Of a stretch of DNA of 9,017 bases, positions 5,801 through 6,033 are shown one piece after another. The DNA is from a virus (lineage: Duplodnaviria; Heunggongvirae; Uroviricota; Caudoviricetes): IMG/VR virus record IMGVR_UViG_2693429549_000020, positions 1 through 9,017 of that record, one strand, 5' to 3'. The notes below the pieces were generated by a model, which was not told the origin of the DNA, searched no databases, and was given only the letters and a program-made list of their open reading frames with translations. The translations under genes were made by a program, and so were the position numbers. Within the stretch, counting starts at the first letter, position 1, and every line of letters starts with the position of its first letter.

Positions 5801-6033
5801 GCTGTCTACCTTGTCTACCTGATTACATAAAAGTTGTTTTAATTCAGTGTATTAATTTAGGTAGACAGCTTTTTTTTACTGTCTACAAGCTGTCTACCTT
5901 GTCTACCTGTTTTTGTAGCCAGCCGGAGGGATGAGTAGACATCAGGTAGATAGCGATTTTTTACTGTCTACATCCATTAAACCCGCGTCATTACTGGCCT
6001 GAGCATCTATCAGGTAGACAGAGTAGACAAGGT
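5801..6033. repeat. Iteron array / putative replication origin
   Basis: Core GTCTAC / GTAGAC occurs 10 times plus one GTAGAT variant in 233 bp, in both orientations (5804, 5813, 5861, 5881, 5892, 5901, 5935, 5946, 5966, 6014, 6023), often as TGTCTACC. Interspersed with an AT-rich stretch (5821-5859) and a twice-repeated T-run+ACTGTCTACA (5871-5887, 5957-5972). Confidence 0.8.

Follow-up and report, generated by a model that had tools for sequence, protein, structure and literature searches.

A probable replication origin of an Escherichia coli-type phage-inducible chromosomal island in the spacer behind its initiator gene

The window analysed here, a stretch of 9,017 nucleotides of viral DNA, carries a dense cluster of short repeats immediately behind a replication gene, which raises two linked questions: what the cluster does, and whether it represents a new kind of replication origin. 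Counting every site with at most one mismatch to TGTCTACC, we found 11 iterons of the form T(G/A)TCTAC(C/A/T) at 5803-6029, six on the + strand and five on the - strand. The exact word GTCTAC occurs in 10 of the 11, always within 5804-6028, and nowhere else in the window on either strand; shuffled sequence averaged 1.9 such words, the highest count being 5, and 0 of 200 shuffles reached 10. An earlier note on this DNA, made from its letters, had described 11 GTCTAC-type repeats in both orientations together with an AT-rich segment, and both observations hold, the latter corresponding to 5820-5859 at 17.5% G+C.

The iterons are arranged with considerable regularity. The first begins 15 bases past the stop codon of the replication gene rep (5786-5788) and forms a tandem pair with the second, both being TGTCTACC on the + strand (5803-5810 and 5812-5819) and set 9 bp apart from start to start. 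Iteron 3 (5860-5867) is TGTCTACC on the - strand and is followed by three + strand copies, iteron 4 (5880-5887, TGTCTACA) and iterons 5 and 6 (5891-5898 and 5900-5907, both TGTCTACC). Two - strand copies come next, iteron 7 (5934-5941, TGTCTACT) and iteron 8 (5945-5952, TATCTACC), the latter being the sole copy without an exact GTCTAC, and then a single + strand copy, iteron 9 (5965-5972, TGTCTACA). The cluster closes with a second outer pair on the - strand, iteron 10 (6013-6020, TGTCTACC) and iteron 11 (6022-6029, TGTCTACT), again 9 bp apart, which mirrors iterons 1 and 2 as an inverted repeat of 21 nt that is 90% complementary. Besides the 9-bp start-to-start step of the tandem pairs, there is a looser periodicity of 85-88 bp.

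Several further elements of the spacer are conserved. The 40 bp between iterons 2 and 3 (5820-5859), with iterons 1-2 on the left and 3-11 on the right, are tied for the lowest G+C content of any 40-mer in the window and constitute a candidate DNA-unwinding element. They enclose a conserved motif, TTCAGTGTATTA (5843-5854); the ATTCAGT within this AT-rich spacer is invariant among relatives, and a similar motif lies in the same place in the crr region of phage P4 and in L008, an E. coli phage-inducible chromosomal island (PICI). An integration host factor (IHF) site was considered here and rejected, as nothing in the window fits the strict consensus WATCARNNNNTTR; TTCAGTGTATTA departs from that consensus by one base and is thus a weak lead only. 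A T8 tract (5870-5877) between the divergent iterons 3 and 4 is part of a 29-nt repeat and is conserved in relatives, and a non-iteron block, CCGCGTCATTACTGGC (5983-5998), is kept in 8 E. coli/Shigella origins. The whole is bordered by two A/T tracts that are inverted partners and invariant in relatives: TTTTTATAATTTTT on the left (5780-5793), which overlaps the rep stop codon, and AAAACTTTTT on the right (6046-6055), which is followed by the ribosome-binding site of the next gene and has similar counterparts in Serratia and Morganella origins and in P4.

Other annotations of the region were sought. We found no DnaA box in the spacer and no Rfam family over the repeat region, the Rfam matches in the window lying at 2642-3308, and the RefSeq relatives checked carry no feature annotation over the 5789-6045 spacer. 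Two open reading frames that enter the spacer, 5770-5934 (+) and 5942-6103 (-), have no Pfam match and were rejected as genes. The single-strand fold of the region has a z-score of -4.5, which reflects the inverted iterons only and is not counted as evidence.

The gene that precedes the spacer, rep (4040-5788, + strand), encodes a 582-aa initiator/helicase in three parts: an N-terminal module, a D5_N plus SF3 helicase and a winged-helix domain. The helicase spans residues 151-415 (Pfam D5_N 2e-15, DUF5906 5e-10, Pox_D5 8e-5), and the protein matches PDB 7OLA, the PriRep of SaPI5 (E 1e-14). The C-terminal winged-helix origin-binding domain (aa 486-575, encoded at 5495-5764, + strand) matches PDB 1KA8, the origin-binding domain of the P4 alpha protein (aa 486-574/575; E 7e-6), and is the putative reader of the iterons. 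Rep is 40% identical to residues 326-756 of alpha (E 3e-108) and shows no similarity to the N-terminal primase region of alpha (residues 1-325). Its own residues 1-140 have no match in Pfam, NCBIfam or the PDB, and no primase domain was recognised there, and residues 1 to about 125 form a module that recurs, at 52-70% identity, in Reps whose helicase bodies are of three unrelated types. A single-sequence AlphaFold model of this N-terminal domain is of low confidence (pLDDT 66) and has a generic four-stranded alpha/beta fold; a Foldseek search of the PDB with it gave no match below E 0.01, with a few TOPRIM-containing proteins among the weak, non-significant matches. The 125-residue module may serve these Reps as a shared adaptor, perhaps to a host primase or to the replisome, in place of the primase that P4 alpha itself carries. 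A scan of genome contigs with Rep returned three loci only, in Shigella, Serratia and Morganella, and the one informative match in a DNA search of a phage collection was to a 374-base stretch of the P4 alpha gene. Separately, that search returned a second match of 80 bases to the DNA-primase gene of vB_KppS-Ant.

The surrounding genes place the locus in a known class of elements. An integrase gene (1-1239), AlpA (1562-1858), Ash-like and Icd-like ORFs and a DUF4222 gene (3756-4043) lead up to rep. Behind the spacer come orf85 (6078-6335), a conserved small replication-module gene of 85 aa (PHROG 1231) that follows the origin in all rep alleles examined, an island-encoded single-stranded DNA-binding protein (SSB) gene (6332-6754; Pfam SSB 4e-16, TIGR00621) and, from 7101, a gene for a ClpP-protease/major-capsid fusion. 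All of these genes, from int through AlpA, Icd-like, DUF4222, Rep and SSB to capsid, are on the + strand. Strain F11 carries a homologous 10.5-kb island between cspD/yljB and clpS, and the IHE3034 relative also sits at cspD-clpS, where, according to Table S1 of Fillol-Salom et al. 2018 (ISME J, PMC6092414), the PICIs EcCIIHE3034 and EcCI18098 have their attachment site. In both EcCIIHE3034 and the prototype EcCICFT073, DUF4222 is followed by rep, then by a spacer of about 289 bp, and this in turn by an 85-aa ORF and ssb. With its repeat cluster 3' of rep, an AT-rich region between iteron sets, the island gene layout and orthology to these elements, the window is an E. coli-type PICI.

The orthology to EcCICFT073 bears most directly on function. 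The window Rep shares 90% identity with EcCICFT073 Pri-Rep and 98% with the Rep of IHE3034; the spacer is 73% identical to that of EcCICFT073 (72-73% for CFT073 and IHE3034 together), and all 11 iteron sites are in register between the window, EcCICFT073 and EcCIIHE3034. PMC6092414 places the Gram-negative PICI origin immediately 3' of the initiator gene and, with Fig. 2a, describes two sets of short iterons around an AT-rich region, a description with which the layout in the window agrees. According to the same paper, a plasmid carrying pri-rep-ori of EcCICFT073 was maintained at the restrictive temperature of 44 °C only with an intact rep, and deletion of ori left colony numbers 'significantly reduced', abolition not being stated in the text consulted. 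We mapped the cloning primers of the PMC6092414 supplement onto EcCICFT073 (locus L004). The pri-ori clone runs from L004 position 4698, at the forward primer, to about 6807, its reverse primer lying about 20 bases inside the 85-aa ORF (the stored primer text is one base short), and the reverse primer of the delta-ori construct ends at L004 6500, just beyond the rep stop codon. These positions mean that the deleted 'ori' is exactly the spacer homologous to about 5793-6099 of the window.

Taken together, these findings lead us to conclude, with a probability of roughly 90%, that 5801-6033, or more fully the spacer at 5789-6077, is the vegetative replication origin of an E. coli-type PICI, of the type found in EcCICFT073 and EcCIIHE3034. 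The earlier note had also suggested a new iteron specificity or replicon type, which is not supported: the EcCICFT073 'ori' is orthologous to this region, with the 11 positions aligned, and the TCTACC type is common. This origin type, traced by the spacer alone, was found in 411 of 5,426 complete E. coli genomes, all copies being chromosomal and none on a plasmid, and the repeat region with its flanks had a match in 549 of the 5,426; among related IMG/VR loci, 72 of 79 carry the TCTACC type. The origin type was described in 2018 and its EcCICFT073 counterpart tested then, so the origin in the window is an ordinary one. The experiment proposed earlier, cloning of rep with the spacer, is already published for an ortholog with a 90%-identical Rep, together with deletion of the spacer (PMC6092414).

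Conservation within this origin type singles out the iterons. In an alignment of eight distinct E. coli/Shigella spacers, 72-89% identical to the window, mean pairwise identity was 0.927 in iteron columns versus 0.730 in spacer columns, and 71 of 88 iteron columns were invariant versus 58 of 145 others; none of the 232 circular shifts of the site mask reached the observed difference. The TCTAC core was identical across 88 site-copies with the exception of one base. The consensus over 53 distinct IMG/VR origins of this type reads Y-N-TCTACC-Y; the sixth base of the core is C in 97%.

The iteron word also changes with the protein that is expected to read it. The island family is mosaic, with a rep of the D5/alpha-like, DUF927 or RepA-like AAA_25 type on the same backbone. 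Compared with DUF927 and RepA islands, DNA homology of the window extends to 4392, inside rep, and is found again from about 6132, within the 85-aa ORF; the intervening 4393-6131 is thus swapped as a single cassette that holds the rep body, its DNA-binding domain and the iterons. Downstream of the DUF927 Rep the word is TAACCCGCA (11 copies), downstream of the RepA-like Rep it is AAGTGAGG (6 copies), and the alpha-like Rep of L008, which has a P4-like DNA-binding domain, is accompanied by 9 copies of CTGTTCACC, a word that contains the P4 iteron; a Serratia relative has CTGTTCAC and a Morganella relative TGTTCAT. The helicase domain of the window Rep is nearest to the Serratia and Morganella proteins (61-64% identity), whereas its DNA-binding domain is an outlier with 30-35% identity to every TGTTCA-type domain, a group that includes P4 alpha and is 44-54% identical within itself. 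Iteron type thus tracks the DNA-binding domain and not the helicase domain. In IMG/VR, TCTAC iterons accompany 72 of 72 Reps with the window-type C-terminus and 0 of 7 with other C-termini. Homology, footprint and covariation together point to the C-terminal domain of Rep as the reader of the iterons.

Comparison with P4 adds a second layer of organization and, with it, the most serious alternative. The crr of P4 (4291-4590) lies directly 3' of the alpha gene and consists of two 120-bp units, each of which starts with A6T8 and contains a tandem pair at 9-bp spacing, as for window iterons 1 and 2, an AT-rich spacer of about 35 bp and inverted copies. The ori iterons of P4 (9310-9413) lie about 4.7 kb away, and the two are annotated as separate features. 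In the window, what we call module A (5801-5907: tandem pair, AT-rich spacer, inverted iteron, T8 tract and three direct iterons) can be aligned with one unit of P4 crr, including the leading A/T tract and the spacer motif TTCAGTGT. Module B (5934-6029: two inverted iterons, one direct, a 40-bp spacer and two inverted) has the iteron order and spacing of P4 ori, its steps of 11, 20, 48 and 9 comparing with 10, 11, 22, 43 and 10 in P4 and 10, 11, 20 and 45 in L008; the window has one iteron fewer than P4. A non-iteron motif, GTCATTACTG, recurs in window module B, in P4 ori and in a TGTTCAC-type origin (L091).

Across the alpha-like PICI origins there is one iteron register, whatever the word. 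Counted from the rep stop, with > for + and < for - strand copies, the window iterons lie at 15> 24> 72< 92> 103> 112> 146< 157< 177> 225< 234<, those of L008 at 15> 25> 69< 89> 101> 108> 143< 153< 164< 184> 229<, and the Serratia and Morganella origins show the same register after a constant offset.

In P4, the crr-like module enhances replication and is not the start site. The cluster in the window might therefore be read as a cis enhancer or Rep-loading platform of this kind, with synthesis starting elsewhere or only in module B, and with the AT-rich spacer of module A not being the unwinding site. The alignment of module A with crr and of module B with ori, and the separate annotation of crr and rep_origin in the P4 record, speak for this, as does the order of the modules, B preceding A in some relatives, which suggests separable units. 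However, the complete relatives contain a single iteron cluster and no second one, so that both roles must fall within 230 bp, and the spacer of module B has about 47% G+C (a manual count from the sequence) and is not AT-rich, in contrast to that of module A. We consider such an account improbable, although module A as an enhancer is the one rival worth keeping.

Two other explanations fare worse. The repeats could be transcription-factor operators for the orf85-ssb-capsid genes instead of an origin, as the cluster is upstream of orf85 and no terminator-like site was found in the spacer after rep. Yet neither was a promoter-like site on the + strand found there, islands with another rep allele have another repeat word although their orf85, ssb and regulatory backbone remain homologous, and Rep-dependent maintenance of a plasmid requires the orthologous fragment in cis, all of which makes operators very unlikely. 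Least credible of all is a packaging site (pac or cosB-like) that a small terminase would recognise: short repeats are frequent in packaging sites and relatives do encode small-terminase-like genes (DUF1441 in F11, terS in IHE3034), but EcCICFT073 and EcCIIHE3034 have two exact lambda-type cosN at the island 3' end, more than 3 kb away, the cluster is kept in islands with differing packaging modules, and the repeat word tracks the DNA-binding domain of Rep. The cos sequence published in the PMC6092414 supplement had no match in the fetched loci and is therefore probably a helper-phage sequence.

Read as an origin, the spacer suggests the following course of events. Induction by a helper phage would lead to excision of the island and expression of Rep, as known from the EcCICFT073 literature. 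Rep would then bind the 11 Y-N-TCTACC iterons through its C-terminal winged-helix domain, as homology, footprinting and covariation predict, and SF3 hexamers would assemble on the inward-facing iteron sets and melt 5820-5859. By analogy with SaPI Reps and P4 alpha, the helicase would load itself without a separate loader. The SSB encoded downstream would coat the single strands, and the host replisome would copy the circle. Priming, the weakest step of the scheme, would probably fall to host DnaG or another partner, because Rep is without the primase domain of P4 alpha.

The architecture of the window origin looks like a compact fusion of P4 crr-like and ori-like modules, a reading that we did not find stated in the literature examined. 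More broadly, we propose that the architecture of alpha-like E. coli PICI origins may not be peculiar to PICIs and may combine P4 crr (module A) and ori (module B) on a fixed scaffold of sites, that the iteron word (TCTACC, TGTTCACC, TGTTCAT or GGTATACAC) has changed repeatedly in step with the winged-helix domain, and, separately, that the N-terminal module may act as an adaptor; taken as a whole, we regard this proposal as having an even chance of being right. PMC6092414 states that the layout of PICI origins is found in no other replicon, a claim that should be qualified because P4 crr and ori show the same modules.

These results have several implications. First, the analysis re-identifies the origin of a well-described class of phage satellites, for which a validating experiment exists in an ortholog. 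Second, in annotation, the 5789-6077 spacer of this island family can be recorded as ori, and predicted ORFs that cross it are not genes. Finally, the family provides a natural series of matched pairs of DNA-binding domain and iteron on a fixed scaffold, which could show how this winged-helix family reads DNA and could also predict which co-resident satellites have the same initiator specificity.

The origin can be compared with several known systems, among them classical iteron plasmids. Iterons of plasmids such as pSC101, R6K, RK2 and those of the P1/F type are typically direct repeats of 17-22 bp, bound by Rep_3-type winged-helix initiators that recruit DnaA and DnaB/DnaC. Common to these plasmids and, by prediction, to the window are repeated initiator sites beside an AT-rich unwinding element and a specificity that comes from the DNA-binding domain of the initiator. 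The window differs in having 8-bp sites in both orientations, an SF3 helicase as initiator and no DnaA box.

The pathogenicity islands of Staphylococcus aureus (SaPIs) offer a second comparison. Iteron binding by their Reps is a task of the C-terminal winged-helix domain, and these Reps self-load and need no ATP to melt the origin (PMC9371898). As in the window, the origin is directly 3' of rep, its short iterons (6-12 in number) lie in two opposed sets on either side of an AT-rich centre, and the initiator is an SF3-type helicase with a C-terminal winged-helix domain, self-loading in the case of the window being suggested by analogy. SaPI iterons are 5-6 bp long and of other sequences, however, and belong to another lineage and host, and the SaPI5 PriRep has an N-terminal primase, whereas none was detected in the window Rep.

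A further comparison is with P4. Its record holds 11 exact copies of TGTTCACC annotated as 'ori type 1 repeat', which bears out the statement in the earlier note that P4 uses TGTTCACC octamers. The alpha protein reportedly binds these type 1 iterons, as the annotation of the P4 record and the title of PDB 1KA8 also indicate. Both systems have a homologous initiator helicase and origin-binding domain, octamer iterons in both orientations and a crr-like module adjoining the 3' end of the initiator gene, with TTCAGTGT and GTCATTACTG common to the two. They differ in the iteron, TTCACC in P4 and TCTACC in the window: exact TGTTCACC is absent from the window, where one-mismatch copies occur at chance level and none falls in 5789-6077. 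An origin that is analogous to that of P4 and distinct in sequence, as first proposed for this locus, is therefore borne out by the related Rep, the match of its C-terminus to 1KA8 and the lack of exact TGTTCACC. Furthermore, crr and ori are far apart in P4, whereas both modules share one 230-bp origin in the window; alpha has an N-terminal primase region that the window Rep is without; and the orientation of the origin relative to the initiator gene is inverted between the two.

The nearest counterparts are EcCICFT073, EcCIIHE3034 and EcCI18098. Compared with the origins of EcCICFT073 and EcCIIHE3034, the window has more perfect copies of TGTCTACC, and its ClpP-protease/capsid fusion gene stands where CFT073 and IHE3034 have a capsid-decoration module. 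With all three islands it shares an origin directly 3' of rep, the TCTACC core and the AT-rich spacer, the DUF4222, orf85 and ssb flanks, and the int/alpA island context.

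The two halves of the origin do not keep a fixed order. In E. coli ETEC4090 (L016, 2003-2318), as in the relatives L076-L080, L091 and L092, rep is followed directly by module B, the half that resembles P4 ori, and only then by module A, the half that aligns with the P4 crr unit. Because this is the opposite of the order in the window, modules A and B appear to be separable units. A strong terminator-like hairpin comes after the genes of four further Rep homologues (L090, L093, L094 and L095; 57-59% identity), which show no repeated word within 340 bp; the origins of these four must be located elsewhere. 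Their close relative L096 carries GGTATACAC iterons at the usual place.

The Rep proteins of E. coli PICIs (the window, EcCICFT073, L006, L007 and L008) share an N-terminal module of about 125 residues (window 4040-~4415) at 52-70% identity, beyond which the remainders are unrelated, being SF3/alpha-like, DUF927 or AAA_25 RepA-like. Searches of Pfam, NCBIfam and the PDB returned no match to this module, which may be an adaptor common to these Reps; in P4 alpha its place is occupied by the primase. The nearest complete-genome match to the window origin (99% identity) lies in a decayed island copy in E. coli VL40 (8256-12089), where insertions of IS421 and ISSso6 disrupt rep and where the origin and downstream genes are nevertheless intact.

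Upstream of rep, Rfam identifies on the plus strand one isrK RNA (2642-2718) and two full-length C4 antisense RNAs (2743-2830 and 3220-3308; 79 and 74 bits), all within mechanically called 'Ash' and Icd-like ORFs. We take this layout to be reminiscent of a P1/P7-type C4/icd immunity region, duplicated in the island. At the other end, a ClpP-like prohead protease is joined to a major capsid protein in a fusion of at least 638 aa (window 7101-9017, and 13684-15597 in the F11 relative, a small island of about 10.5 kb). The F11 relative lacks a lambda-type cosN, which EcCICFT073 and EcCIIHE3034 both possess, so the packaging route of this sub-family may differ from theirs.

Several non-iteron elements of the origin also have counterparts in relatives and in P4. 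The block CCGCGTCATTACTGGC (5983-5998) is kept in all TCTACC-type E. coli origins. Its core, GTCATTACTG, is also present in P4 ori (9339-9348 of the P4 record) and in the TGTTCAC-type origin L091 (2598-2607), and in other relatives the corresponding position holds a short hairpin. Within the AT-rich spacer, TTCAGTGTATTA (5843-5854) is conserved, with TATCAGTATGTTA at the matching offset in L008, an island with an alpha-like Rep, and TTTCAGTGTGATA at the same offset in P4 crr (~4350-4362 and ~4530-4542). The IHF consensus WATCARNNNNTTR is matched by the L008 version; that of the window departs from it at one base. Finally, the partially complementary A/T tracts TTTTTATAATTTTT (5780-5793) and AAAACTTTTT (6046-6055) border the origin on either side, similar to the A6T8 tract at the start of each P4 crr unit.
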